Positions 3,402-55,023 of a DNA stretch of 55,023 nucleotides are shown one piece after another; the first letter of the stretch is position 1, and each line of letters starts with the position of its first letter. Position numbers and translations under genes: made by a program. Source of the DNA: a virus (lineage: Duplodnaviria > Caudoviricetes); the IMG/VR virus record IMGVR_UViG_3300037469_000008, positions 1 through 55,023 of that record; one strand, 5' to 3'. The notes beneath the pieces are model-generated. The model saw only the letters and a list, made by a program, of their open reading frames with translations, ran no database searches and was not told the DNA's origin.

Positions 3402-3672
3402 ACAGGAACTTGCGGTGGATCTCCATCGCTTGCTTGAGCAGTTTGCACCACAGCCACCAGAAGCAGCAACCGCGCTTGCTCAGATGGTGCGCGATACTGC
3501 CAGCACGCGTGATGTCCTTTTCGTGCCAGAGCCGGGGGTCGTGCTCATGTTTGGTTATGGTGGACTTGTGCGTGTGCTGCCAGCGCATCGGCATGTGCAT
3601 ATTGCCACCGTGGACGAGTTAGCCGCGATGAGCGATCAGCAGGTCTATGATGCAGTAAAGGATGCAAAATGA
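3244..3672 (+). CDS. Hypothetical protein
   Basis: SD AAGGAG; ATGA overlap with next gene. Confidence 0.75.
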   Translation: MPTSKRKPAAKNPVELPTVVQTATPEPEMPTEAQVQTMTEEAFAPTEPMVLSEQELAVDLHRLLEQFAPQPPEAATALAQMVRDTASTRDVLFVPEPGVVLMFGYGGLVRVLPAHRHVHIATVDELAAMSDQQVYDAVKDAK

Positions 3673-3896
3673 TCGAGCAAGCAGCGCATACACAGCGTGT
3701 CACCTGCTCACAGCCAGGTCCGCGCAACGCACGAGGCCAGCCCAAGCCACTTGCGACGATTGAGCCGGACGGAATATGGGTGTATTGCGGTCACTGCAAA
3801 GAGCCGCACTTTCTTGCGCGCTCGGTGGTCATGGCAGCATGGGGACGTGGCGGGAGTGTGCAGTGTGGATGGCAGGATGAAGCGGGTGTGGAATGA
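3669..3896 (+). CDS. Small Zn-ribbon protein, Mu Com-like regulator candidate
   Basis: VTC...KPLA...GIWVYCGHCKEPH; precedes structured leader of capsid operon. Confidence 0.55.
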   Translation: MIEQAAHTQRVTCSQPGPRNARGQPKPLATIEPDGIWVYCGHCKEPHFLARSVVMAAWGRGGSVQCGWQDEAGVE

Positions 3897-12867: not shown

Positions 12868-15507
12868 ATGGCGGCAGGAGACATTGCACTAAAACTCATT
12901 CTTGCAGGAAATGCTACGAGCGCGATTGCTGCCATGTCTGGGCTAACAAAACAGAGCCTGAATCTTAAGAACGTGGTAGCGATGGCCGGACTCGCAGCGG
13001 GCGCCGCCATGGTTGATTTTGGGGCCCAGAGTGTGCATGCAGCGGGTGATTTTGGGGCGGGCATGACGACACTGCAAACAGGCGCAGGAGAGCTTGCAAG
13101 CAACATGAATCTTGTCTCCAATGGCGTCCTCGATATGTCCACACAGACGGGGGAGAGTACCAAGCAACTCACCGATGGCATGTTTATGATCGAGAGCGCC
13201 GGCTATCGAGGCGCGGATGGCCTGAATGTGCTCAAGGACGCTGCGGAAGGTGCAAAAGTCGGCAACGCTGACCTCGGCGTGGTTGCGAATGCCGAGACTA
13301 CTGTCATGAAAGACTACGGAATCAGTGCCAATAACGCAGCCACGGCCATGAATTTCCTGACGGCCATTGTGCAAAATGGCAAGACCACATTGCAAGACCT
13401 CGCGTCCTCTATGTCTCAGGTACTTCCTACCGCAGCTGCGGTCAAAGTGCATCTTGTCGATGTTGGCGGCGCCATGGCAACGATGACTAGCGAAGGCGTG
13501 CCTGCCGCGAACGCTGCCACCTATTTGCGCCAGATGCTCATCTCGCTTGCCGCGCCATCCTCTGCCGGATCAAAGGCGCTCAAAGACATCGGGCTTTCCA
13601 GTCAGCAGGTCTCCGATGAAATGAAAAAGAGCCTGCCTGGCGCGCTGCAACTGATTATGTTGCATCTGGGCGAGACCTACAAGGTTGGCTCGCCGCAGTA
13701 TGTGACCGCACTCAAAAACATCGCAGGCGGCAGCAAGCAAATGCAGGGCATGCTCGACTTAACAGGTTCACATCTCAAAGAGTTCCAGGCGAATGTCAAG
13801 AACGTCTCCGGCACAATGAACCAGGGCAAGGGATCGGTGGTCGGATGGTCGCTGGTCCAGCAGGATTTCAACTTCAAAATGGCACAGGCCGGACAGGCAG
13901 TCAATGTACTCATGATCCGCCTGGGAACGGCGCTCTTGCCCATCGTCTCGTCCGTCGTGACTTCGTTCTCGAACTTCGTCTCCTGGCTCAGCCAGGGCAG
14001 CACTGGCGCACGCGCGCTCGAAGTCGCACTCGGTGTCGTAGTGGGGGCGCTCACGGCGTTCGCGATCGGCATGGGGGTACTGAAAGCCATCTCCATCGCG
14101 CAAACGCTCGCAAGTTGGGTGAGTGGCTTTATTGCCATGATCCCGGCCATGTGGGGAGCCGTCACGGCATCCTGGGCATTTACCGCGTCGCTGCTCGCTA
14201 ATCCCATCACCTGGATCGTGCTCGCTATCATTGCGCTCATCGCGGGTCTGGTCCTGCTCATCACGCACTGGAGCCAGGTGGTTTCCTTTTTGCGCGGCGT
14301 CTGGGGCGCGGTCGTCTCCTGGCTTGCTGGAATCTGGACGAACATCAAAAATACTGCTATTTCTGTTTTTACCTCTATTGTCAATTTCTTCACAGAAACT
14401 TGGACCCGGGTAAAAAACACAGCAACAAATATTTGGGGAGGTATTGTTGGGTTTTTGTCTGGAATCTGGTCGCGAGTGACTAGCGTATTCTCATCCGTAT
14501 GGCGCGGGATAGTAAGCGTACTAACCGTTATCTGGGATATTATCAAAATGACAGCTTTTGTTATTTTTGCAATAATTGTTGCCATAATTCTCAAACCATT
14601 TGTTCCGCTTATTGACTGGTTCCGCGCACATTGGGCGCAGATACAGGCAGCACTTTCCACTGCTTGGCGGACGATCCAAAATATAGCCTCAACCATATGG
14701 ACTGCGATAGGCAATTTTTTCTCGACAATAGGCACTTTTATCCATAATTTAATCACAACCGTTTGGTCCGCGACTTCTAGCTTTCTGCTCGGAATATGGT
14801 CAAATATATCAAAAGTCGCATCTTCTATTTGGTCAGGAATAACAACATTTTTCCGAATAGAACTCATTGGATGGAAAAATATCATCTCAACCGTTTGGGT
14901 CTGGATTTCCGGTTTTTTGTCGAAGATTTGGTCTGGGATCAAATCTGCGGCGTCCTCAATTTGGGGCGGAATAAGTTCATCAATCATGAATGTGGTCCAT
15001 AGTTTGCAAGATAAACTCAGCAATATATGGGGAAATATAAAATCTGCATTTTCTAACGCCATGAATTCGCTGGCGGGGATCGCGCATGGTGCCTGGAGTG
15101 CCGTATCAGGCGCGATCAAATCCGCGATCAATACCGTTATCGGGCTGATCAATGGGATGATCGACGGGGTGAACAGCGTCACAAGCAAAGTGGGTATCCC
15201 GTCGATCCCGCATATTCCCTACCTGGCCAGCGGAGGGAGCAACCTTTCATCCGGCATGTACTGGGTAGGTGAATCTGGACCAGAACTGTTGTGGATTCCG
15301 CAGGGATCGACTGTCATGTCGCATCAGCAGAGCACTGCACTCGTGTCGCGTCCTGGTAGCTATGCGCTCGCTGGCCGAGGTGGCGGCTCGTCCACCATTG
15401 TCGTGCAGCCTGCGCCAGTTTATCTCGACAAGCGGCAGGTGGGGCAAATCCTCTTCAACTATCAGGCTTCGGAGATTCGCAAACAGGGAGGCATCAGGCA
15501 CCGATGA
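12868..15507 (+). CDS. Tape measure protein (TP901-type)
   Basis: Ala-rich N-domain, TM segments, about 11-aa Trp periodicity, YLASGG...VGESGPELL. Confidence 0.93.
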   Translation: MAAGDIALKLILAGNATSAIAAMSGLTKQSLNLKNVVAMAGLAAGAAMVDFGAQSVHAAGDFGAGMTTLQTGAGELASNMNLVSNGVLDMSTQTGESTKQLTDGMFMIESAGYRGADGLNVLKDAAEGAKVGNADLGVVANAETTVMKDYGISANNAATAMNFLTAIVQNGKTTLQDLASSMSQVLPTAAAVKVHLVDVGGAMATMTSEGVPAANAATYLRQMLISLAAPSSAGSKALKDIGLSSQQVSDEMKKSLPGALQLIMLHLGETYKVGSPQYVTALKNIAGGSKQMQGMLDLTGSHLKEFQANVKNVSGTMNQGKGSVVGWSLVQQDFNFKMAQAGQAVNVLMIRLGTALLPIVSSVVTSFSNFVSWLSQGSTGARALEVALGVVVGALTAFAIGMGVLKAISIAQTLASWVSGFIAMIPAMWGAVTASWAFTASLLANPITWIVLAIIALIAGLVLLITHWSQVVSFLRGVWGAVVSWLAGIWTNIKNTAISVFTSIVNFFTETWTRVKNTATNIWGGIVGFLSGIWSRVTSVFSSVWRGIVSVLTVIWDIIKMTAFVIFAIIVAIILKPFVPLIDWFRAHWAQIQAALSTAWRTIQNIASTIWTAIGNFFSTIGTFIHNLITTVWSATSSFLLGIWSNISKVASSIWSGITTFFRIELIGWKNIISTVWVWISGFLSKIWSGIKSAASSIWGGISSSIMNVVHSLQDKLSNIWGNIKSAFSNAMNSLAGIAHGAWSAVSGAIKSAINTVIGLINGMIDGVNSVTSKVGIPSIPHIPYLASGGSNLSSGMYWVGESGPELLWIPQGSTVMSHQQSTALVSRPGSYALAGRGGGSSTIVVQPAPVYLDKRQVGQILFNYQASEIRKQGGIRHR

Positions 15508-17258
15508 ATTATATCACACGTTCCGGCTCAACACTGATGAATGGCACCAGCATATTTCGCTTCGCCGGATGTAATTGTTTCTGGCTCGGCTTACTCTGGC
15601 CGGCGCAGGAGTCGGCGGCTCGCTACCCTACCAACAGCGAGATAGACGATGCTTTGCAAACGGCCGTCGAGATGGGCGCGAGCGTTATACGCTCTCATAC
15701 ACTCGGAATCAGTGTTGGGAATAGCCTCTCTATCGAGCCGTCTCTGGGGGTCTTCAACGATGCGGCATTCGCGCCCATCGACTACACCATCAAGCGCTGC
15801 AATGACCTGGGTTTGCGCATGATTATCCCGCTCACGGATAACTACCACTACTACCATGGCGGGAAGAGCACGTTTACGACATGGCGAGGGATCAGCGACG
15901 AGACGCAGTTCTACACGAACAGCCAGGTGATCGCTGACTTTGAGGCGTACATCAGCCACCTCCTGAATCACGTCAGTACGCTGTCCGGTGTGGCACTCAA
16001 AAACGATCCAGCCATTCTAGCCTGGGAGACAGGCAACGAACTCGGCAACCCGACGCCGCCAACATCGTGGACCACGATCATTGCTAATTACCTCAAGAGC
16101 ATCGACAGCAACCACATCGTGATAGACGGCTCGTATGGCGTGAATAGCGCGGCGCTCTCCATCGCCAACGTGGACATCTATTCCAACCACGTTTACCCGC
16201 TGCAAATCAGCCAGATCGCGAGCGATGCCTCGACAGCAAACGCGGCGGGCAAGGCGTACCTCATCGGCGAGATAGACTGGCGACCTTACGCATCTTCCGG
16301 CTCTGGTGCGATGTACCTGGACACAATCACAGCGTATGCCGGCGCTGCGTCTGCGAAAGTGGTGGTCAATCGCCCTGATGCCTATCCGTACCATGTGCAG
16401 TTCAGACAGGCGGGCTTATCGCTGATTCAAGGCACCTCCTACACACTTTCATTCGCGGCAAAAGCGGATGAGGCGCGCAACCTGCAAATAGCTGTGATTG
16501 GAGGCGCAGCTCCTTATCCTGTCTATTTCCAGCCTGCCGATTTTCTGATCGGAACGAGTTGGCAGGTGTATAACTTCACATTCACGATGAACAAGGCGAG
16601 CGATGCAAACGCGGTGCTCAATTTCGACGTGGCGCAGGTAGTGTCGAGCGTGTGGATTGACTGCGTATCGCTTATTCCAGCAGGCGGCACGAGTCTCATT
16701 GTGAATGGCGACATGGAAGCGGGATCACTCAGCCCCTGGACCATGCACAATACCACCGTCACTCCCGACAGTCTCTCAGCGTTCGAGTCTTCCGTCGAGA
16801 GCAATGCGGCCATCTCAGGAGATCTGTTCTGGTGTCTCATGCCACATCGGGATAGCTACGGGTTCGCACTGCAAAACGATGGATTCAGCCTCTACTATCC
16901 TGGGCAGGAAAGCGGTGCGCAGGCCAATGCGCAAACACTGCGTACGCACGCCTATACCATGAGCGGGTTAGCGGTTTCCTCAGCTCTTGTTCCCGCAGCG
17001 CCGGCACTGAACGCCATTACCAAGGCCAGTGGCGTGTACAGCGTCTCGTGGCGTGGCGCCGTGGGGGCAGAGACGTATGCCTTAGAGCAGTCCACATCGG
17101 GCACGTCCGGGCCGTGGGTGGTACTTGGAAGTGCATACACCGATTTCAGCACGCCTGTCTCTGTTCCGGCGCTCTCACAGTGCTGGTACCGCGTGCGCGC
17201 AGCCAATGTGAGCGGCGTATATGGCCCCTACTCGGAGGTGGTCGGAGGGCCTGACTGA
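15504..17258 (+). CDS. GH5 glycoside hydrolase (mannanase-like) with inserted CBM4/9-like module and C-terminal FN3
   Basis: FRFAGCN, AWETGNE (acid/base Glu), H-Y, IGE (nucleophile); YTLSFAAKA..R CBM motif; YRVRAAN FN3 motif. Confidence 0.85.
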   Translation: MNYITRSGSTLMNGTSIFRFAGCNCFWLGLLWPAQESAARYPTNSEIDDALQTAVEMGASVIRSHTLGISVGNSLSIEPSLGVFNDAAFAPIDYTIKRCNDLGLRMIIPLTDNYHYYHGGKSTFTTWRGISDETQFYTNSQVIADFEAYISHLLNHVSTLSGVALKNDPAILAWETGNELGNPTPPTSWTTIIANYLKSIDSNHIVIDGSYGVNSAALSIANVDIYSNHVYPLQISQIASDASTANAAGKAYLIGEIDWRPYASSGSGAMYLDTITAYAGAASAKVVVNRPDAYPYHVQFRQAGLSLIQGTSYTLSFAAKADEARNLQIAVIGGAAPYPVYFQPADFLIGTSWQVYNFTFTMNKASDANAVLNFDVAQVVSSVWIDCVSLIPAGGTSLIVNGDMEAGSLSPWTMHNTTVTPDSLSAFESSVESNAAISGDLFWCLMPHRDSYGFALQNDGFSLYYPGQESGAQANAQTLRTHAYTMSGLAVSSALVPAAPALNAITKASGVYSVSWRGAVGAETYALEQSTSGTSGPWVVLGSAYTDFSTPVSVPALSQCWYRVRAANVSGVYGPYSEVVGGPD

Positions 17259-34011: not shown

Positions 34012-34320
34012 TCAGGTTCGATTAAGTTTCATGCGTAGATGCAGAATGGCCTCAATCTCTTCTGCCTCTAACTCTGCGCAGCTATCGCAGCAGTTATATT
34101 GGTTGAGATCAGGCCCGGAAATGTGGCCATCTTTGCCATAGCACTCCCAACAGAGCATGCGCCCGCATACGTCGCACATAGGAGCTGCTGGCCGCGCATC
34201 GGCAAAGGAAAATCGGCTCATGTGGCAGATTTCGCATCCGGTAGGTTCGAGTACTTTGGTGGCGTGTACGCGGATAATCATGCGATATTTTGGCGGCACT
34301 GCCAATTCGGTGAAGTTCAT
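34012..34320 (-). CDS. Cys-rich Zn-finger protein
   Basis: Four CxxC-type pairs. Confidence 0.7.
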   Translation of the reverse strand: MNFTELAVPPKYRMIIRVHATKVLEPTGCEICHMSRFSFADARPAAPMCDVCGRMLCWECYGKDGHISGPDLNQYNCCDSCAELEAEEIEAILHLRMKLNRT

Positions 34321-35507
34321 GCCACGACCCGCCTTTCTGCCAGGCTTGCCAGCCCGCGCTGGGTGATCATCGCAGCGACTGCCGGCGTGACGGACAACCC
34401 GATTTGGCGCAATGCCTCCTTCTTGCTGCAGTCGAAGCGAAAGCTGGCCGGATAGCCCATGGCGCGCCGGGATTCGTCAAACGTCAACATCCGGTAGCCA
34501 CACTCGTCCACGCTTGCTTCTGGATGCGGCACGGTGATGAACGCATGTCGATCTCTTGTGGTTATCGTGCCGATTGGCTCATTCACTGTGCGGTAGATGG
34601 CCGTTCCGTAGTAGCTCATCAAGAAAAAAGGGAGATGGCGGTATCGGGCCAGTCCCTGCCGGATTTTGTGGTAGGTTCTCTCCACCAGCGGCCTGGTGCG
34701 CTGCCCGATGATAGGTGTAGGAAGCTTCCAGTCCAACACATCTTTGGCCGGGTGATAGAACGGGACCACCTCTTTGCCGCATCCAGGGCACACGTAGATG
34801 TACTGCTCCCCGTATGCGCCCCAATGCTTCAAGCTTTTCCAGGATTGGAGTGCGCCCACTTGCCGGTCACAGGCTTTACAGTAGGCCCCCGGCCTGATGT
34901 CCAGGTCTGGCATCTGATGGCCATTCAGGGAGAATACCGCATACCAGCGATCGCGCGACTCGCAGCAAGGGGCCGGGAATGCTGGGGCGAACATGCTGTT
35001 GAAGTAGACGGTTTGCGCCTGATACCCCAATCTTTTCATGTCGCTCACCCAGGTCTGGTATCCTCCCCATCGCTCAACTTCCGGCACATTCTCCACAAAA
35101 ATCAGTTTGAACGGATGCCCCCGCTTTTTCTTCGTCTCCGCCCAGCGAACAACTTCGTTCATCGTTGTTCGGGACCGCGTTGCGGGATCGTCTTCTTCAC
35201 GATCCGTCCACCTGCCGCGCAACTCGGGCCAGAGTTCTGGCTGGTTCTGCCCCAGGATCTTTGCGCCTATGGCTGTGGACTGGTAACGACACTCGGGAGA
35301 AGCCTGCAGTATATCGGCATCCGGATAATGTCCCGGATGAGTTTTTGTGATGTCCGTAAGCACCTGCCGCGTGTGTGGAAAGTTCAACGCATGTGTTTCG
35401 AGGCTTCTCTCGTTGTGGTTGAAAGCTGCCAGAGTGTGAACACCACATGCGGCAAATCCCGAATCCCATCCACCAGCCCCTGAGAAAAGGGTTAATGCAG
35501 TAGCCAT
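34317..35507 (-). CDS. C5 cytosine DNA methyltransferase
   Basis: LFSGAGG, SPEC, ENV, R.R, IGLSV. Confidence 0.9.
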   Translation of the reverse strand: MATALTLFSGAGGWDSGFAACGVHTLAAFNHNERSLETHALNFPHTRQVLTDITKTHPGHYPDADILQASPECRYQSTAIGAKILGQNQPELWPELRGRWTDREEDDPATRSRTTMNEVVRWAETKKKRGHPFKLIFVENVPEVERWGGYQTWVSDMKRLGYQAQTVYFNSMFAPAFPAPCCESRDRWYAVFSLNGHQMPDLDIRPGAYCKACDRQVGALQSWKSLKHWGAYGEQYIYVCPGCGKEVVPFYHPAKDVLDWKLPTPIIGQRTRPLVERTYHKIRQGLARYRHLPFFLMSYYGTAIYRTVNEPIGTITTRDRHAFITVPHPEASVDECGYRMLTFDESRRAMGYPASFRFDCSKKEALRQIGLSVTPAVAAMITQRGLASLAERRVVA

Positions 35508-35556
35508 ATAACACCTCGCATCCATCGTAGAGCCGAGATACCCCGGCGGATAATAA

Positions 35557-36372
35557 CTAAACCATGCAATAGCCCGACTCACATGTGTCAAGCTCTTCAA
35601 ACAGTCCCTGCTGGCCGTATTCATGGGTACTCTGGTCCAGGGGCTTCATTAGTCGCGTGAACCACACCGGGTCCATACCCAGCATCTTGCGTCGCTCATT
35701 GAGGAACCGCTCTAACTCAACCGACTTCTGGAAGAGTTCGGGTTGATTCTGTCTCATCTCCTGCCAGACACTAAGCTTGTGATACGGGCAAAACCAACAG
35801 GACGACTTTGGGGGAATAGGCAATCCAGCGCTGGTGATAATGTTCATGCAATCTTGCCGGGTGAGTGGGCGCTCTACCTCATCCAGTAGGGGGAAGACAT
35901 TCTCTTTCCATTCAATCGTGTCGGGGTCCGTGTTGGGCTTCACACGCTCAATCTCGTCCAGACTGATGCCAAGTCCAACCTGAGCACCACTGGTCTTTGC
36001 ACCATGCGAACGCAGCCATTTATCCACCACCAGGATTTTGAAGTCTGCTGTGCAGGAGCGCCGGGGAGGCGCTCCTGATCCGTTCATGCGCACCGGAATG
36101 CCAATCGAGCGAGAACCTGGGCGAGTAAGATGCTGATAGAGCGTTTCCGGTTCGCCAAAGCGGGTCTTTTGCAACTCAATGAATGCAATATCGTGTTTCC
36201 CTGCGAACGGCCTCGCGTAATCGCGCACATATGTCAGCGTCGCGGGGTTCTCTGAGTCCTCGCCCACGTTACAGAAGAGGAATGTTTTGAAGTCGATTTT
36301 ACTCTGTGCAGCGAGCACCAGAGCGGCTGTACTCTGGACTCCACCCCCATAACTAAAGACACGCAGAGTCAT
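35557..36372 (-). CDS. PAPS-reductase-like (PP-loop) protein
   Basis: SYGGGVQS, CT..FK, FPL, KSSCWFCPY. Confidence 0.85.
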   Translation of the reverse strand: MTLRVFSYGGGVQSTAALVLAAQSKIDFKTFLFCNVGEDSENPATLTYVRDYARPFAGKHDIAFIELQKTRFGEPETLYQHLTRPGSRSIGIPVRMNGSGAPPRRSCTADFKILVVDKWLRSHGAKTSGAQVGLGISLDEIERVKPNTDPDTIEWKENVFPLLDEVERPLTRQDCMNIITSAGLPIPPKSSCWFCPYHKLSVWQEMRQNQPELFQKSVELERFLNERRKMLGMDPVWFTRLMKPLDQSTHEYGQQGLFEELDTCESGYCMV

Positions 36373-38852: not shown

Positions 38853-39079
38853 CTCCCTCTCATCCAGGCATCGCGCACGGATGGTTTCGTTTCAGGTGCG
38901 TGCTGGCGTTGCCATTCGTCCTGTGTCAGAACGCATTCGGGAAACACCTGCTCTTCATCGCCAGCGCCATTCCATCGCACCCAGACTATGCGGTGTGGTG
39001 CAACATCGCGCGTGGCGATTCCCTGTGTGCCATGAATGTGATGGACGACATCACCGACTTTGAATCGTAATTCAGTCAC
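38849..39079 (-). CDS. Small SH3-like hypothetical protein
   Basis: FKVGDVV...V.VRW. Confidence 0.65.
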   Translation of the reverse strand: MTELRFKVGDVVHHIHGTQGIATRDVAPHRIVWVRWNGAGDEEQVFPECVLTQDEWQRQHAPETKPSVRDAWMRGR

Positions 39080-41276
39080 CTGCCACCTCCGCCCACAGCG
39101 TTGTCTGCGTTTTGCTTCTGATCATCCGGTCCAGGTTCTTGCGCGCAGCGGCAAAGTAGGACGGCTTGAGTTCACACCCTACAAATCGGCGTCCGTGTCG
39201 AATTGCCTCATAGCCAGTGCTGCCAATGCCGGCGAATGGATCAAGTACCGTCTCGCCTGCGTTGCTCCACAAGCGCACGCACCGCTCGATGAGTGACAAC
39301 TGAAGCGGGCATACATGTTTCTCGTCGTCGCTCTCGCGCCCCTCCGCAGCGTTCAGGGTGTTGCTCTCGCGGATGTCGTACCACACCGGATGCGCCCACT
39401 TGATCCATTCGTCGTTGGTGATATCGGGCTGAATGGGCGTCGTGTTCTCTCCCGGTTTGCGAAAGATGAGGATGTAGTCCGCCAGTCCGGGCCGCATCCA
39501 GGAGCTGTCTTTGCGGAGTTGCACGAAGAGCAGGCCCTTTGCCTTTGTGCGCACAGCCTGGGCCTGTGGGTTTTTGTCCACCGTGATTTCGCCGTGATAC
39601 ATCCATCCCCGATCCACAAACGCGCGCACGACCTCACCGCGAAAGTCCTTGAGTCCGATAAAGCCATCTTTCACGAGGCTGGCGGCCACCTGCTGTACAT
39701 GGATGCAGCAGTCTCGTCCGGGCTGAGTAACCCGCAGCAGGTGAGTGATGATGTAGTTGAGATGCTGATAGAATTCAGCGGTGTTTTTGCTATTGCCGAG
39801 ATCGCGATCTGTCGGGCTGTAGCAAAACAGGTCCTGAAATGGGATAGAACTGACAGTGAGGGCGACGGAATTATCAGGGATCTCAGCCAGCCGCTCACAG
39901 CTATCACCCAGCATCAGGGTATAGTGGGTATTCTTGATCGTGTCGGTGGTATAGGCGTCGTCCTGGCTCGCGTTCTCGATTTCTGCGCGCTCAAAGGACT
40001 GGACATGTTGAATAAGTTGCTGACTCATGGACGCAGCCTCATGCTCTTTCCGCATCACATTTTGATAGATTTCCTGTTCAATTTCAGAGAGGACAATATA
40101 GGCGTTCACCGGATGTTTTTGCCCGAAACGGTAGCACCGCCTGATGCACTGGTAGTACGCCTCGAAACTGTCGGAGAGGCCAATAAAAGCCATGTTGTGA
40201 CAGGACTGGAAGTTCATTCCATACCCAGCAATTTTGGGTTTGGTGATAAGCACGCGGACGTGTCCACCCTGAAAGGCTTCGATCGCGGCGATTTTCTCGT
40301 CCGGGCTATCGCTGCCCGTGATTTCGACTGCACCAGGGATTGCCTGAGCCAGTGCGGCGCTCTCATCGTTCATGCCGCACCACAAAATCCACTGCTCATC
40401 GTTCGACTGCACCAACTCAACGGCGTGAGCAACCCGCTCTTCGATCGTGCCCCTGCGCGCCTGACTACGATCCTGGATGCCTTTTAGTCCGGTAAAGAAA
40501 AGCTGATCGGCGGGTTTGTAGTCCGTCCCCACGATCACCGACTCGACCTGCAGCGCCGGCAGGACATAGCCCTCATCGCTGAATCCGATGTCAGATGGAC
40601 GCTTGATCGACATGCTCCATGATGCCATCCAGCGATAGAATGCATCCGTTGCGTGGCCTTTCAGCCGCCAGCCGGTGCCGCTGCCATTGGAGCTGTCGTG
40701 TACGAAGAATGTTGCGAGCATCTCGGCGCGTGGCAGAATGCCCAGGAATTCGCTGTGATTGGCGATTTCTACGAGGTCATTGGGCGCCGGGGTTGCAGTG
40801 CAACAGAGTCGGTAGGGCGTCTTCATGAACATCTCGATCAACAGATCGCGTGTTTTGCCGTCTACCGCTTTGAGGATACTGCTCTCATCCAAGACCACCG
40901 CGCCGAAGTCAGCAGGATCAAAGTGGCCGATCATCTCATAGTTGGTGATGTTGATGCCGTTCGTCATGTCGTCACGCGAACGGGTGTAGTGGACATCGAC
41001 GCCGATTTTTCTGGCCTCGGTCGCTGTTTGGCGGGCCACTGACAACGGTGCGATGATCAGCACACGCGTTCTCGTGAGTCGCGCCCATTCCACCTGGCAC
41101 ATCGTCTTCCCTAACCCGGTGTCAGCAAACAGGGCCGCGCGGCCTTTTCTCAGTGCCCACTGCACCAGGGTTTTCTGGAAGTCAAAAAGTTTCGGGTGGA
41201 TGGCAGAAATCGGGACCTCGATCCCTGCCGACGGCGCGGTGGCTTTTTTGCTTGCTAGGAAATGCTGATAATCCAT
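39072..41276 (-). CDS. SNF2-like helicase fused to N4/N6 DNA methyltransferase
   Basis: DTGLGKT, DESS, TATP, QCIRRCYRFGQ; GDSCE, SSIPF, HVCPLQ, VLDPFAGIGST. Confidence 0.9.
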   Translation of the reverse strand: MDYQHFLASKKATAPSAGIEVPISAIHPKLFDFQKTLVQWALRKGRAALFADTGLGKTMCQVEWARLTRTRVLIIAPLSVARQTATEARKIGVDVHYTRSRDDMTNGINITNYEMIGHFDPADFGAVVLDESSILKAVDGKTRDLLIEMFMKTPYRLCCTATPAPNDLVEIANHSEFLGILPRAEMLATFFVHDSSNGSGTGWRLKGHATDAFYRWMASWSMSIKRPSDIGFSDEGYVLPALQVESVIVGTDYKPADQLFFTGLKGIQDRSQARRGTIEERVAHAVELVQSNDEQWILWCGMNDESAALAQAIPGAVEITGSDSPDEKIAAIEAFQGGHVRVLITKPKIAGYGMNFQSCHNMAFIGLSDSFEAYYQCIRRCYRFGQKHPVNAYIVLSEIEQEIYQNVMRKEHEAASMSQQLIQHVQSFERAEIENASQDDAYTTDTIKNTHYTLMLGDSCERLAEIPDNSVALTVSSIPFQDLFCYSPTDRDLGNSKNTAEFYQHLNYIITHLLRVTQPGRDCCIHVQQVAASLVKDGFIGLKDFRGEVVRAFVDRGWMYHGEITVDKNPQAQAVRTKAKGLLFVQLRKDSSWMRPGLADYILIFRKPGENTTPIQPDITNDEWIKWAHPVWYDIRESNTLNAAEGRESDDEKHVCPLQLSLIERCVRLWSNAGETVLDPFAGIGSTGYEAIRHGRRFVGCELKPSYFAAARKNLDRMIRSKTQTTLWAEVAGD

Positions 41277-41337
41277 TAATTGTCCCGTCCTTTTTGCCGC
41301 GAAAGCGGATTCCTTGTAACTCGTCCTGTGGCTCCCC

Positions 41338-41492
41338 TTGCGGAATGGCATTCTGGGGAGTATAATAGTTGCTTACCGCGCAAGTCCGGTGCAGCCGCAT
41401 CATTCCTGCTTCCACGCTTCCGCGTGAACAGAACCTACAGTCCGAACACTCAAGGCCGCATCCAGATGTCAGAGAGATGCGGCCCTTTTATG
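41338..41492 (+). ncRNA. Antisense sRNA unit (promoter, about 120 nt, terminator)
   Basis: TTGCGG-N17-TATAAT; GGCCGCATC/GATGCGGCC hairpin plus TTTT. Confidence 0.7.
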
Positions 41493-48656: not shown

Positions 48657-49340
48657 GTGGACGTATATCACCGTGCGCGTGAAGCCGCGCAGCGAGGGGA
48701 GTGGGGAGTGGTCTGGGACATCTTCTGTGCGGATGCGGACCTGTCTGAGGATATGGATAGAATGCAGGCGCAGACGATGCGCAGGCGGATGGCCGGCCTC
48801 TGCCTGATCCTGGCTCAGGCTCACCTGGCGATGGATCATATGGATATGGCCCTGGCCTACGGGCTTGATGCCTTGGCTCTGGACGGGGATGCCGTCCAGA
48901 CATATGAGTTGCATCTGTTTATCGGATACATCCACGCCCAGATGGGCAATCAGGATGCTGCGATGACCGTTTGGCAGAGCGCCATCGAATCCGCTATACG
49001 GATGCAGCGGCCGGGTGATGCTGTCAAGGGCCTGATTCTGTTGGCTGGGCAGACACACAGACTTGAGGCTCAGCGCCTGTGTGGCAAAGCATTGAGGCTG
49101 GCAGGAGAGACCCCGCCTAGTGCGCTTCTCCTATTGTGCGCCCGGGTTGCGCACAACAACAAAGATGCAGCCGAGTGGTATCGGAAAATTTTGGCATCGC
49201 ATTCCTCAAATTCTGCCGATCGAGTGAGTGCGCATGTTGCGTTGGCTCGCCTGGCGGAAGAAGCCGGCGATATCCGGCAGGCGCTGGATCATTGGAAATA
49301 TGCGTGCAAGGAGGATGCGAGTGAAGCACGTAACGATTGA
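48657..49340 (+). CDS. TPR-like helical repeat protein
   Basis: Ala/Leu-rich TPR pattern. Confidence 0.7.
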   Translation: MDVYHRAREAAQRGEWGVVWDIFCADADLSEDMDRMQAQTMRRRMAGLCLILAQAHLAMDHMDMALAYGLDALALDGDAVQTYELHLFIGYIHAQMGNQDAAMTVWQSAIESAIRMQRPGDAVKGLILLAGQTHRLEAQRLCGKALRLAGETPPSALLLLCARVAHNNKDAAEWYRKILASHSSNSADRVSAHVALARLAEEAGDIRQALDHWKYACKEDASEARND

Positions 49341-49755
49341 TGAGTTGCAGGCCGGTCTGACTTGGGAAAATATCCATGCATGGGCGAATGCATGTCCAGA
49401 TGATTCGCCTATTGGCGACGTGGCGGCGCATAATATCTGCCCGGTCGCACGATTTCTGGGCCATTTCTGGCCGGGAAGTACATGGAGTGTATGGTCAGAT
49501 ACAATCAGCAAGACCGATAGTCCCTTAATGGGTATACCGACGCCGACGTGGCTGTCAGATGTCATCAGATCGGTAGATTTGTGCGGAGAGAGCACAATTA
49601 GCCGCCAGGATTTTCTCTCCATTCTAGAGCAGCATAAATCAGAGAGTCTGGCTGCAATGCCAGACTGCAAGGAGAATGAGATGAGCAATTATCCGTTCTG
49701 CGCAGAGCACTATGCTGCGCACGTCGAGAACATGAAAGGATGGGAGGGCAAGTGA
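49321..49755 (+). CDS. Hypothetical protein
   Basis: SD AGGAGG plus GTG; CPVARFL. Confidence 0.7.
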
Positions 49756-49973
49756 CTGAAGAAACTTGGGAATGTCACATTGCACATGCACAAATCCCCC
49801 TCTCTGAAATCGCCGGTGTGTTGTACGCACGCGTCCCGTGCAACGAGGAAGAAGCACCGTCAGGGAATTGCCACGATTGCGCAGTCGGCATCGGGCAAAT
49901 GCATGTGCCAGGCTGTGACGTGGAAAGATGTCCAAAATGTGGATGTCAGGCTATCTCCTGCGGGTGCAGTTAG
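49752..49973 (+). CDS. Cys-rich Zn protein
   Basis: CHDC..G..H.PGCD.ERCP.CG.Q.ISCGC. Confidence 0.75.
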
Positions 49974-50024
49974 GACTGAAAAAAAGCAAGCACAGGGCTT
50001 TCAAACCACGACGAAGGAGGAATC

Positions 50025-50249
50025 GTGACTAAGCAAACGGGAAAATCTGACGTGTTTGTTTGCGGGCTCAGCGCAGAGGAGACCTACGAGATAGCGTCAG
50101 AGGCCGCCAAAGTCGGGCTCTACGGCATTGCGAATCCGAGTCCGGGACAGGTCTTCTTCCCGGACTTTGAAAATACTGAGATAGCGCAAGACCTGGCAAA
50201 GATGCTTTGCCAGGCGGGATACCGGGCTCAAACGATCCGCCACGAGTAG
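50025..50249 (+). CDS. Hypothetical protein
   Basis: SD AGGAGG plus GTG. Confidence 0.7.
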   Translation: MTKQTGKSDVFVCGLSAEETYEIASEAAKVGLYGIANPSPGQVFFPDFENTEIAQDLAKMLCQAGYRAQTIRHE

Positions 50250-50305
50250 AGTATTGGAGATGACATTGAAAAGGGACTGTTCGGTATCGATCGGGCGAGC
50301 GGTCC

Positions 50306-50426
50306 ACACAAGAGCACCGGGTGTACCGGTGCTCTTGTGTTATGCCACTACACCATAGATTGCTCCTTTCTATACGCCCCAACTTATTGCAGGTGTACCG
50401 GTGCTCTTGTATTATGCCACTACACC
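50306..50426. repeat. Two 35-bp direct repeats around a 37-bp spacer, plus 15-bp anti-repeat (CRISPR mini-array-like or att-like)
   Basis: 50320-50354 and 50392-50426 match at 34/35; 50306-50320 is the reverse complement of 50326-50340. Confidence 0.85.
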
Positions 50427-51460
50427 TGCAGTTTTGCTGCCAGCATACTGGCAATCGGATCGCCCGCCACGCGTCGCTTACGCTTTTCGATATAGCCGAG
50501 CGTGGTTTGCACATTCGTGTGGCCGAGCGCATTTTTCACATCGAGGATATCATGTCCATTGAGATTGTACCGCGTCCATGCGTGCTCATGCCGAAGCGAG
50601 TGGACAACGATATTATCAGGGATGCCCGCTGCACGGGCATAGATGCGGAATCGCCGATCAACAACACTCAAACCGATCGGCTTTGCCTGTTCCATCGGTG
50701 CCATGGCACCAGCGAAAATACTAAAAAAAATGGGTTGGAATGGGCGCATGTCGTCAAAGTTGCATCCCGCAGCCAGGTGATACGAACGTATCACCTCAAT
50801 ACACGCCGATGGCATCTCAGCGCGCTCTTTGCGGAGGCGCCACTTTGGGAGGTATTGGTACATCCATCCATGGCGGGGTTTACCTTCTTCGTAGAATATG
50901 GCTGGTTCCATATCGCCCCGCAAGAGCTCGGCGATTTCTTTACGCCTGCGTCCCGTGGCAAACAGGGCAAAAAAAATCGCATAATCGCGCTTGCCGATGA
51001 TCGTACTTCTATCAATTTGAGCAAAAAATCGATTGATTTCTCCCTCATCCATGTCTCTGTCCGCTGGTCCAGTTCCCTGCACTTTGATGTGTTTTGTTGG
51101 TAGCGTCTTGCCGCGCAGGGCTGACATCTGTTTTCCGCGATATTCCACCTCTACATTCTCGGCATAGGCATAAAATGACCGGATGGCCATTAAATACGTG
51201 TTTCGCGAAAATGGAGATAATGGATGGCCAGCGCGCATTGTAGGAATGCTCACTGGCTGACGCAGGAACGCCTCGATGTCGGATTGTCCTACCTTGTCGG
51301 GCGTCACGGCGCGCCCGTGTTTTTCGCGCAAAAACGCGAAGAATCTGCGCAGCGTCTTATCATATTGGCCCTGGGTGGTCTTGTTGTTGATTTGCGCGAG
51401 GAAGTCAGCAAATATGGTGTTCCACCGCTCGCTTCGCCAGAGTGGTTTGTCTGGCATCAT
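50420..51460 (-). CDS. Tyrosine recombinase / integrase (XerC/D-like)
   Basis: RD...TGRR..EI, HSLRH, LGH....T..Y catalytic motifs; SD GAGGAG. Confidence 0.92.
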   Translation of the reverse strand: MMPDKPLWRSERWNTIFADFLAQINNKTTQGQYDKTLRRFFAFLREKHGRAVTPDKVGQSDIEAFLRQPVSIPTMRAGHPLSPFSRNTYLMAIRSFYAYAENVEVEYRGKQMSALRGKTLPTKHIKVQGTGPADRDMDEGEINRFFAQIDRSTIIGKRDYAIFFALFATGRRRKEIAELLRGDMEPAIFYEEGKPRHGWMYQYLPKWRLRKERAEMPSACIEVIRSYHLAAGCNFDDMRPFQPIFFSIFAGAMAPMEQAKPIGLSVVDRRFRIYARAAGIPDNIVVHSLRHEHAWTRYNLNGHDILDVKNALGHTNVQTTLGYIEKRKRRVAGDPIASMLAAKLQV

Positions 51461-51499
51461 ATACTCCTCTCGGTTCCGATCCCCCGATGGAGCATCACA

Positions 51500-51588
51500 A
51501 TCATATCTTCCGACAAGAGCACGTGTCAAGAGGCAGAAATATCGAGAAATGGCTACCTCTTGCGAATTTACCGTGTCGAATATATACT
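51500..51588. promoter_or_regulatory. Divergent promoters (recombinase / late operon)
   Basis: (-) TTGACA-N18-TATGAT; (+) TTGCGA-N17-TATACT; CAAGAGG/CCTCTTG inverted repeat. Confidence 0.75.
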
Positions 51589-51615
51589 TGCAGTAAAGCA
51601 CGCCGGAGTGTGTGT

Positions 51616-51828
51616 ATGGCAAAACTGACACCAACAGGTGAGCATGAAGCCATCGATCTCAAGCGGCTTCACTCCAAGGACATCCTGTATTTGGACGATG
51701 AAATTGACACGACTCTTACAGGAAAATATCCTAACGGCGGGTTCGCCCGAATCTGCCTGGAAGTGAAGAATGGGATCGTGGGGCTCATCGAATTCATAAA
51801 AACGAGTAAGCCTGAGAACAGGCACTAA
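51616..51828 (+). CDS. Small DUF2292/YezD-like protein, late regulator candidate
   Basis: GGFARICLEVKNGIVGLIE pattern; SD GGAG. Confidence 0.6.
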   Translation: MAKLTPTGEHEAIDLKRLHSKDILYLDDEIDTTLTGKYPNGGFARICLEVKNGIVGLIEFIKTSKPENRH

Positions 51829-51835
51829 ATACAGT

Positions 51836-51903
51836 CTCGACGTAACGAGCCAAGATGCCGGACGCCGACTCTCGTCCAAGAGTTTGCGCCCGGTTTTTGT
51901 TTT
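51836..51903 (+). terminator. Small hairpin plus terminator in late leader
   Basis: CTCG-ACGTAA-CGAG; CCGGACGC...GCGCCCGG plus TTTTTGTTTT. Confidence 0.7.
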
Positions 51904-52071
51904 CGTTTGGATATCTCTCTCGCCGGGTTCGGGGATCAGCCCGGCATCGTCCTGGTGTTCTCCTGCGTATCAGGGCAGTCCGGTGAGTCTGCCCTGGGGG
52001 TGGTTTCCCGGCGCGCTGGTGCTGCTCGCGTGGTGTGTGGGCTGGCTGGCCTGAATAGAAACGAGGTTGAG

Positions 52072-54993: not shown

Positions 54994-55023
54994 ATATATC
55001 AATCTCAACGAGGTATAGCCCAT

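Follow-up and report, generated by a model that had tools for sequence, protein, structure and literature searches.

What is a pair of CRISPR-sized direct repeats doing on the stop codon of a phage integrase gene? The question is raised by a virus record of the IMG/VR database (IMGVR_UViG_3300037469_000008), analysed here over a stretch of 55,023 nt that we call the window. Where the early operon and the tyrosine recombinase (integrase) gene of this phage converge, the window carries two 35-nt repeats with a 37-nt spacer between them and a 15-nt antirepeat at one end. An earlier interpretation made from the letters alone, the sequence-only reading, saw in this element a possible CRISPR mini-array or an RNA anti-CRISPR, the scar of an attachment (att) site or an empty slot for the recombinase, and a hairpin that might terminate the converging operon. 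Our preferred answer, which we hold tentatively, is that this element flanks the phage's own Xer-like integrase gene on its 3' side as a region for recombination and termination, and that it bears the scar of an insertion or duplication.

The repeat pair, the palindrome and the integrase stop codon

The layout of repeat, spacer, second repeat and antirepeat, with its sizes and with a stop codon inside the repeat, is present in full as the sequence-only reading described it (Table 1). On the + strand, the two 35-nt copies (GGTGTACCGGTGCTCTTGTRTTATGCCACTACACC) occupy 50320-50354 and 50392-50426, are identical at 34 of 35 positions and start 72 nt apart. The repeat pattern matches these two sites only in the window at up to three mismatches, and none of 100 dinucleotide shuffles gave two matches; the pair is not chance. 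In the probable source run, one 21,245-nt contig covers the site and is identical to the window.

The 15-nt antirepeat (50306-50320) pairs perfectly with 50326-50340 across a 5-nt loop, forming a palindrome that can equally be read as 14-nt arms around a 7-nt centre (ACACAAGAGCACCG-GGTGTAC-CGGTGCTCTTGTGT, 50306-50340). This palindrome occupies the gap in which the early operon and the integrase gene converge, 80-114 nt past the integrase stop. The borders of the repeat unit coincide with it. The unit ends are GGTGTA and its reverse complement TACACC, the same sequence as the palindrome centre. Read on the integrase strand, the unit runs through the last G of a CAG codon, GTG, the TAG stop, 7 nt, the first palindrome arm and the centre. 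Its distal end is the palindrome centre itself, and with 14-bp arms the unit stops exactly at the edge of GGTGTAC. The distal copy continues into the second arm, whereas the proximal copy continues into unrelated sequence and therefore looks like a half-site. The arm CCGGTGCTCTTGT is present as an inverted pair and one direct copy.

The proximal copy has borders of its own, with TGCA on either side (50427-50430 and 50388-50391) and a 10-bp inverted repeat around it. When a 151-nt region was folded and compared with shuffles, z was -6.5 and -6.6 on the two strands, none of 200 shuffles was as good, and the palindrome and the 10-bp stem dominated the minimum-energy folds of both strands. The Shine-Dalgarno-like AAAGGAG followed by 6 nt and ATG GTG TAG is also present as previously described (50369-50348, - strand); this two-codon frame shows no sign of use.

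Removing the proximal copy together with one TGCA (39 nt) leaves CTG CAA TAA in frame, and the integrase then ends in ...AAKLQ*, close to the ...AAKFQ* of a relative (P0015). Two reconstructions are possible. The ancestor may have had one unit, its stop lying 9 nt ahead of the palindrome in the manner of relatives, and gained 72 nt, or it may have ended at the in-frame TAA and gained 39 nt. In both, the breaks fall either at a GGTGTA-type sequence or at TGCA.

Table 1 Features of the repeat element and of the genes around it in the window
Feature	Position	Strand	Details
Last open reading frame of the rightward early operon, 74 aa	50025..50249	+	Strong GAAGGAGGA-N4-GTG start
Perfect palindrome ACACAAGAGCACCGG-GTGTA-CCGGTGCTCTTGTGT	50306..50340		15-bp arms, 5-nt centre; 100% complementary
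Integrase-distal 35-nt copy (GGTGTACCGGTGCTCTTGTGTTATGCCACTACACC)	50320..50354	+ (as read)	Includes palindrome centre and second arm (50326-50340)
tRNA D-arm-like stretch TGGTGTAGTGGCATAACA	50338..50355	-	Integrase-proximal half of the unit
Shine-Dalgarno-like AAAGGAG (50369-50363), 6 nt, ATG GTG TAG (50356-50348)	50348..50369	-	Two-codon frame entering the distal copy
Unique stretch between the copies, 37 nt	50355..50391		On the integrase strand starts TGCAATAAG and ends AAAGGAG-N6-AT(G)
10-bp inverted repeat TGCAGGTGTA/TACACCTGCA	50388-50397 / 50421-50430		Around the proximal copy; absent from the sequence-only reading
Integrase-proximal 35-nt copy	50392..50426		Contains the G that ends CAG, followed by GTG and the integrase TAG
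Tyrosine recombinase (integrase) gene	50420..51460	-	Likely start ATG 51460, stop TAG 50420-50422
Promoter-like site upstream of the integrase, TTGACA-18-TATGAT	51500..51529	-	11/12
Small open reading frame diverging from the integrase gene, 70 aa	51616..51828	+	Kept beside the integrase gene in L003 and L030

The integrase and the flanks of related integrase genes

The longest open reading frame (ORF) of the integrase reaches back to TTG 51634, and the recorded form has 345 aa (P0002). It matches Pfam Phage_integrase (2.2e-12), SAM-like N-terminal domains and the PHROG integrase annotation, and the R..K..HxxR..Y columns are kept in 20 relatives. A SAM-like core-binding domain begins at about residue 27 and is followed by the catalytic domain; with only ~26 residues before it, there is no room for an arm-binding domain. 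In a search of the PDB with the family profile, the matches were XerA (4e-14), XerD (6e-14), IntI4 (1e-12), a XerC-like protein and XerH (1e-9), with HP1 integrase at only 1e-4. The integrase is a two-domain, Xer-like tyrosine recombinase, as its domain order and profile matches indicate. All 27 homologues found are metagenomic, the best being 53% identical, and single-protein queries of IMG/VR returned no close relative of the integrase or of the neighbouring 335-aa ORF. The relatives borne by genomes are distant (24-32% identity), with four loci in one Chloroflexia metagenome-assembled genome (MAG) and one in an unclassified MAG, and their flanks are uninformative.

A temperate phage with an integrase is expected to have a phage attachment site (attP), which usually lies in the flank of the integrase gene. 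Two-domain tyrosine recombinases use sites of ~30 bp with inverted arms around a 6-8-bp centre. The element adjoins the recombinase gene, with the proximal copy overlapping its stop codon, and the 14+7+14 palindrome has the inverted arms and the centre of such a site, a likeness of geometry only. Common cores of 30-45 bp are described as typical (PMC10865867).

In the reading we favour, the palindrome with its 14-bp arms and GGTGTAC centre would be a simple dif/lox-like core for the two-domain recombinase and would also stop or stabilise the converging transcripts. The second copy would have come from DNA inserted or copied between breaks at two GGTGTA-type sequences, either through the recombinase acting at a secondary half-site or through a 39-nt insertion into TGCA at the end of the gene. 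The integrase frame would be intact because the copied segment carries its own stop codon. The 37-nt piece with its Shine-Dalgarno sequence and ATG would be a leftover with no function of its own. Binding by the enzyme, the position of the crossover and terminator activity are all proposed here from sequence.

We compared the flank of the integrase stop codon across 19 related loci and the window. Six distinct closer relatives (L003, L004, L027, L028/L029, L030 and L031) have integrases 35-44% identical to that of the window. In all six, an inverted repeat begins at most ~35 nt from the integrase stop, one hairpin in each, and none of the six has a direct repeat pair at this flank. The gene order is common to the window and these relatives, and an early-operon gene is also kept in L003. 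Given the single hairpin past the stop and the shared gene order, the window palindrome is the positional counterpart of their hairpins. By this comparison, the distinctive feature of the window is the extra 72 nt. The records behind L003 and L004 hold no copy of the element (L027-L029 lay outside this search).

Four loci with more distant integrases (L010, L011, L013 and L035; ~30% identical) share a conserved block, TGTAG-YYAGTCGTAGTGGCTCA, directly past the stop codon. On the other strand the block reads TTATGAGCCACTACGAC and resembles TTATGCCACTACACC of the window, and the distant group has a TTATG(AG)CCACTAC block in common. In these four, the block is followed by one converging ORF, different in each, and then by conserved sequence again. 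In L012 the block is split into GTAGCTAGTC, a 626-nt gene, ATAGCTAGTC-GTAGTGGCTCA and a second gene, and TAGCTAGTC stands on either side of the 626-nt gene. L034 has no gene at this place and carries two block copies, 20/23 identical with a 78-nt period. The first of these copies holds the integrase stop, while the second is preceded by ATGG and followed at once by the conserved far flank. The 9-mer ATGGTGTAG precedes or starts the second block copy in L034, as it does in the window. Duplication at the stop codon does recur in relatives, and a block containing the integrase stop is present in duplicate on either side of inserted DNA in three phages, namely the window, L034 and L012.

The place past the stop in L010-L013, L034 and L035 is a slot within 1.1 kb of the integrase stop with a hypervariable single gene. 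It is bordered by a 17-22-nt block at the stop and by a conserved flank that resembles a promoter and 5' untranslated region. Four of the phages account for five unrelated ORFs in this slot, L012 for another two and L034 for none. A broader proposal, which we consider doubtful, is that this Xer-like phage integrase family has a recombination core on its own stop codon that works as an insertion slot. Segments ranging from tens of nucleotides to whole promoterless genes would be taken in between core copies, in an integron-like manner, but 3' of the recombinase gene. On this view, emptied or minimal slots are seen in the window and L034, L012 would hold two genes parted by the core, and L010, L011, L013 and L035 would each hold a different gene.

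Two other loci have repeats past an integrase-type gene that differ from those above. L005 (an IMG/VR contig, integrase 34% identical) has a ~730-nt array at 2046-2776, directly past the integrase stop, with ~40 units of 18 nt, each made of a 10-nt motif, by turns TGGCTCGCTC and TGGYACTCTC, and 8 variable nt after it. To judge by its conservation this array is not coding-like, and it may be a protein-binding array. L026, from the unclassified MAG, has a ~85-nt unit with the hairpin CCCTGACGGTTCGACCGTCAGGG repeated ~200 nt apart at ~3436-3760, past a distant integrase-like gene.

Several observations count against a recombination site at this place. The hairpins of the relatives vary in sequence and in the size of the loop or centre (3-12 nt), and their arms show only a loose likeness, AAGAG..CCGG. 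Because they vary in this way and most have A/T tracts, these hairpins look more like plain (bidirectional) terminators than like conserved sites of recombination; phages with related recombinases do not share the site. L012, L034 and the L010 group each have their own cut points, so illegitimate or homologous exchange would fit no worse than site-specific recombination. The product of a true crossover would have one side in common without limit, and not just 28 nt. No attB, attL or attR was found, and 401 Chloroflexota genomes gave noise-level matches to the 141-nt region, except for a tRNA D-arm. Relatives of the large terminase (TerL), 45-53% identical, occur in 10 of the 401 genomes and settle nothing on the host; those in Methanoculleus or Rhizobium phages are comparable (44-49%). 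The site is covered only by contigs of the probable source run and in the phage form only. Of the two other sequencing runs listed, X2 gave none on 49000-52000 and X3 two short pieces elsewhere; none of the three is an RNA run. Finally, no counterpart of the arm motif appears at the promoters of relatives' integrase genes.

This last point concerns the spacer of the promoter-like site upstream of the integrase gene, in which 51513-51523 (- strand) repeats the palindrome arm at 10/11 positions (CGTGCTCTTGT). By chance, about one match this good would be expected in the window. With this expectation and no recurrence in relatives, autoregulation of the integrase through the arm copy was reduced to a mere lead. 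The region upstream of the integrase was also considered as attP and rejected; it contains promoters that diverge and a small ORF that is conserved, and showed neither a repeat nor the signal of an RNA family.

The D-arm match is the only recurrent match in the 401 Chloroflexota genomes. The stretch TGGTGTAGTGGCATAACA is 17/18 identical to positions 8-25 of tRNA-Asp/Glu genes, and all ten matches that were fetched lie in tRNA genes, nine for Asp and one for Glu. The same stretch is present as a poorer match in the proximal copy at 50410-50426. By a rough estimate that was not computed, such a match to some conserved stable-RNA gene would arise by chance about 1 time in 100. The match extends neither to the acceptor strand nor to the anticodon arm, and the Rfam tRNA model matched neither the region (E<=10) nor the window as a whole (E<=5). 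A tRNA gene or tRNA gene fragment marking attP was ruled out on these grounds, with ARAGORN finding none, Rfam nil and only the D-arm matched. Among the classes listed in the Islander report, where 159 of 3919 islands carry a 5' tRNA gene fragment, D-arm crossovers do not appear (PMC4383910). Lysogeny dependent on a tRNA gene, as outlined in PMC10865867, is likewise unsupported, the phage having no tRNA gene to replace a disrupted target. The D-arm match is an unexplained lead and possibly a relic of a tRNA-linked site.

CRISPR, transcriptional and mobile-palindrome explanations

In form, the element resembles a CRISPR unit. Its direct repeats fall within 23-47 nt and enclose a unique spacer of similar length, at the minimum of a single spacer, and the borders are sharp. 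A CRISPR-derived unit could have arisen in two ways, and we consider this origin improbable. It could be a mini-array or RNA anti-CRISPR whose + strand transcript comes from the early operon and in which the antirepeat acts as a leader-repeat hairpin. It could instead be the footprint of Cas1-Cas2 having integrated a spacer off target into a repeat-like native prophage sequence, a "neo-CRISPR"; staggered integration at both repeat ends would yield exactly this layout. As described in the respective sources, there is precedent in the leader-first-repeat hairpins of type VI arrays (PMC13187072), in the cas-less solitary repeat units of phages, whose defining traits are a promoter and likeness to a host repeat (PMC10651486), and in off-target spacer integration, which can found new arrays (Nivala 2018, as cited in 10.1101/148544).

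The searches did not bear this origin out. The window has no cas family, as the sequence-only reading had noted (Pfam scan of 74 ORFs, PHROGs scan of 16), the neighbouring genes are small ORFs with no assigned function, and neither cas nor acr/aca (anti-CRISPR and associated) genes lie near the element. No CRISPR-DR or other convincing Rfam family was found in the region at the gathering score or at E<=10. The only Rfam match with a low E-value, the small RNA SpF25, was rejected as hairpin-driven (30.6 bits, below the gathering score of 48). In IMG/VR, a 29-nt exact repeat pattern had no match, and a degenerate pattern of the repeat ends only gave two single chance matches, both inside one coding sequence. 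The spacer had no match in IMG/VR (27-nt exact) or elsewhere in the window, and the region containing it had no blastn match at E<=1 in INPHARED (50,697 phage records). The Chloroflexota genomes were chosen because the only genome-borne integrase relatives with an assigned lineage come from a Chloroflexia MAG; the 401 held no array and no long match to the 141-nt region, and did not identify the phage's host. A consensus promoter scan found none on the + strand at 50250-50320, where the consensus may not be that of the host, and the sole candidate near the element is a weak 9/12 site inside the integrase gene (50558-50531, - strand). The element shows neither likeness to a host repeat (Rfam, 401 genomes, IMG/VR) nor a + strand promoter of this consensus. 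There are moreover only two copies, one of which overlaps a coding stop codon, the six closer relatives lack the repeat pair, and the duplications of the distant relatives are un-CRISPR-like in length (23/55 nt and 9/626 nt).

The mini-array or RNA anti-CRISPR is accordingly unsupported in every test run and weakened. What is left of the likeness is form, in the 35/37-nt lengths, the complementary hexamer ends and the pairing of a flank with one repeat, with no match to a CRISPR repeat family. That the closer relatives have one hairpin and no repeat pair agrees with part of what the sequence-only reading itself had named as counting against it. An att-site scar or empty recombinase slot fits better, given the Xer-like enzyme, the bounds of the unit at the palindrome centre and the duplications in L034 and L012. 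We lean, short of confidence, towards a recombination and terminator scar of the integrase over a CRISPR array, with no working CRISPR unit in the element.

A purely transcriptional explanation is a real if unlikely alternative. The 10-bp stem at the integrase stop and the 15-bp palindrome would end or stabilise the converging transcripts, the 35-nt identity would be a recent local duplication with no function, and recombination would take place elsewhere. The palindrome does occupy the place of the terminator-like hairpins of relatives, both stems dominate the predicted folds on both strands, and a difference of 1/35 between the copies is what a young duplication should show. The hairpin as terminator of the converging operon, already suggested in the sequence-only reading, also fits better than CRISPR, with stem and position both suitable. 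Yet no T-run follows either stem on either strand, so the terminator scan calls neither, and it made no intrinsic terminator call in 50300-50430; the palindrome may still be a terminator that lacks a U-tract. Simple duplication also leaves unexplained why the copy ends exactly at the palindrome centre and at the inverted version of it, why TGCA flanks it, and why stop-codon blocks are duplicated in L034 and L012. In another explanation, the proximal copy is a tiny mobile or copy-pasted palindromic unit of 35 nt with 6-bp terminal inverted repeats, like a repetitive extragenic palindrome (REP) or a miniature inverted-repeat transposable element, that entered TGCA at the end of the integrase gene and duplicated it. 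TGCA does lie on either side of the copy. Removal of 39 nt restores the in-frame TAA and a family-like C-terminus, and the unit has inverted ends and starts GGTGTAG; a leading GTAG is a hallmark of REP. We nevertheless think such an origin very unlikely. The 55 kb contain just two copies, IMG/VR and the 401 genomes searched have none, the copy lacks the second arm and so is not a complete hairpin element, no transposase is present, and TGCA is itself palindromic, so that the apparent duplication may merely lengthen the stem.

Two further identities were rejected. A type III toxin-antitoxin system would pair a repeat RNA with a toxin, but the only ORF that comes next on the integrase strand is antisense to a gene with a good start. 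In integrons, intI diverges from attI and the cassettes, and the attC cores are RYYYAAC/GTTRRRY. Here the element lies at the 3' end of a converging recombinase gene, the hexamers are GGTGTA/TACACC, and IntI4 was one of several Xer-type matches.

Genome setting and comparison with known systems

The window encodes a portal protein (138-2264), a tape measure protein, tail proteins and a GH25 lysin, as well as two DNA methylases, an HTH_17 protein and a Cro/CI-type repressor. The rightward early operon, which includes an Erf-like annealing protein, ends at 50249 and converges with the oppositely oriented integrase gene on a 170-nt gap. The small and large terminase genes are at the right end. 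The large terminase gene ends 30 nt short of the right end (54994-55023) and the portal gene starts 138 nt from the left end (1-137). With terminase at one end and portal at the other, the window looks like a nearly whole permuted genome; it is probably a near-complete, circularly permuted genome of a temperate tailed phage from soil, despite a CheckV completeness of 54%. ARAGORN found no tRNA genes in the window, and Rfam gave no match across it at gathering scores or at E<=5. The 74-aa ORF that closes the early operon had no Pfam, PHROG or Atlas match. The 70-aa ORF that diverges from the integrase gene, which has no family, could be a directionality factor or regulator.

A 759-aa protein (39072-41351, - strand) fuses a SNF2/DEAD-type helicase to an N6/N4 DNA methylase domain. 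A C5 cytosine methylase is encoded separately at 34317-35624 (- strand). Both likely have anti-restriction or replication-linked functions. In the tail region, a protein encoded at 15504-17258 (+ strand) has a GH5 cellulase-like domain and a CBM_4_9 carbohydrate-binding domain. It is a possible depolymerase candidate and could hint at the host envelope.

If the reading we favour is correct, the element provides a candidate minimal 35-bp recombination site for an uncharacterised, purely metagenomic family of soil Xer-like phage integrases. The site would overlap the enzyme's own stop codon, with insertions tolerated without damage to the gene. It would be directly testable in vitro and could serve as a recombination tool. 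A repeat-spacer pattern of CRISPR length could then arise beside an integrase with no CRISPR link, and cas-less "mini-arrays" of viral contigs would therefore need a match to a real repeat before being counted as such. Were the element instead CRISPR-derived, it would be a rare natural phage-borne unit or a case of off-target spacer integration.

Among known systems, a similar arrangement is that of XerS/difSL, XerH/difH, XerA/dif and P1 Cre/loxP, in which a two-domain recombinase lies beside a ~30-bp site with inverted arms around a short centre. This placement of gene beside site is characteristic of single-recombinase Xer modules and of Cre/loxP. Known dif sites are, however, imperfect palindromes with a 6-8-bp centre and are conserved among relatives, whereas the window has perfect 14-15-bp arms, no conservation in the hairpins of relatives and a half-site copy 72 bp away. 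The region also resembles lambda int-attP-sib/tI, in that the integrase is transcribed toward a candidate att region with a strong hairpin beyond it. With such an arrangement, a crossover located past the stop and before the hairpin would leave the integrase gene of the prophage uncoupled from the hairpin (retroregulation). Lambda differs in that its integrase has an arm-binding domain and its attP spans 240 bp and includes arm sites. A third parallel is TnpI and its IRS in Tn4430 and Tn5401, where a small tyrosine recombinase lies beside inverted core motifs with direct copies on one side. The arm CCGGTGCTCTTGT, an inverted pair with one direct copy, has a similar arrangement. In the TnpI systems, however, the accessory motifs are 12-16 bp and upstream, while the window repeats the whole 35 nt, downstream, with no transposon.

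Overlap of attP with the integrase gene has been described for intP of Myxococcus phage Mx8 and for fusellovirus SSV1 (PMC6070905, PMC4383910). As in the accounts of these two, the candidate site in the window lies at the 3' part of a tyrosine integrase's own gene, and recombination would touch the C-terminus. In the same accounts, the Mx8 site is well inside the coding sequence, its target is a tRNA-Asp gene and its attB sites are known. In the window, the duplicated block takes in the last two codons and the stop, with only the last 7 coding nt involved, the free phage genome has two copies of this block, and the recombinase is of the Xer-like kind. Finally, the element is similar to the solitary repeat units and mini-arrays of phages and to type VI hairpins in being a cas-less intergenic unit with lengths in the CRISPR range and a pairing flank (PMC10651486, PMC13187072). 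The solitary repeat units, as characterised in PMC10651486, match the host CRISPR repeat and usually have their own promoter. In the window, by contrast, one copy overlaps the integrase stop codon, and the sequence that pairs with the repeat is the second arm of a palindrome that relatives have without the repeat.

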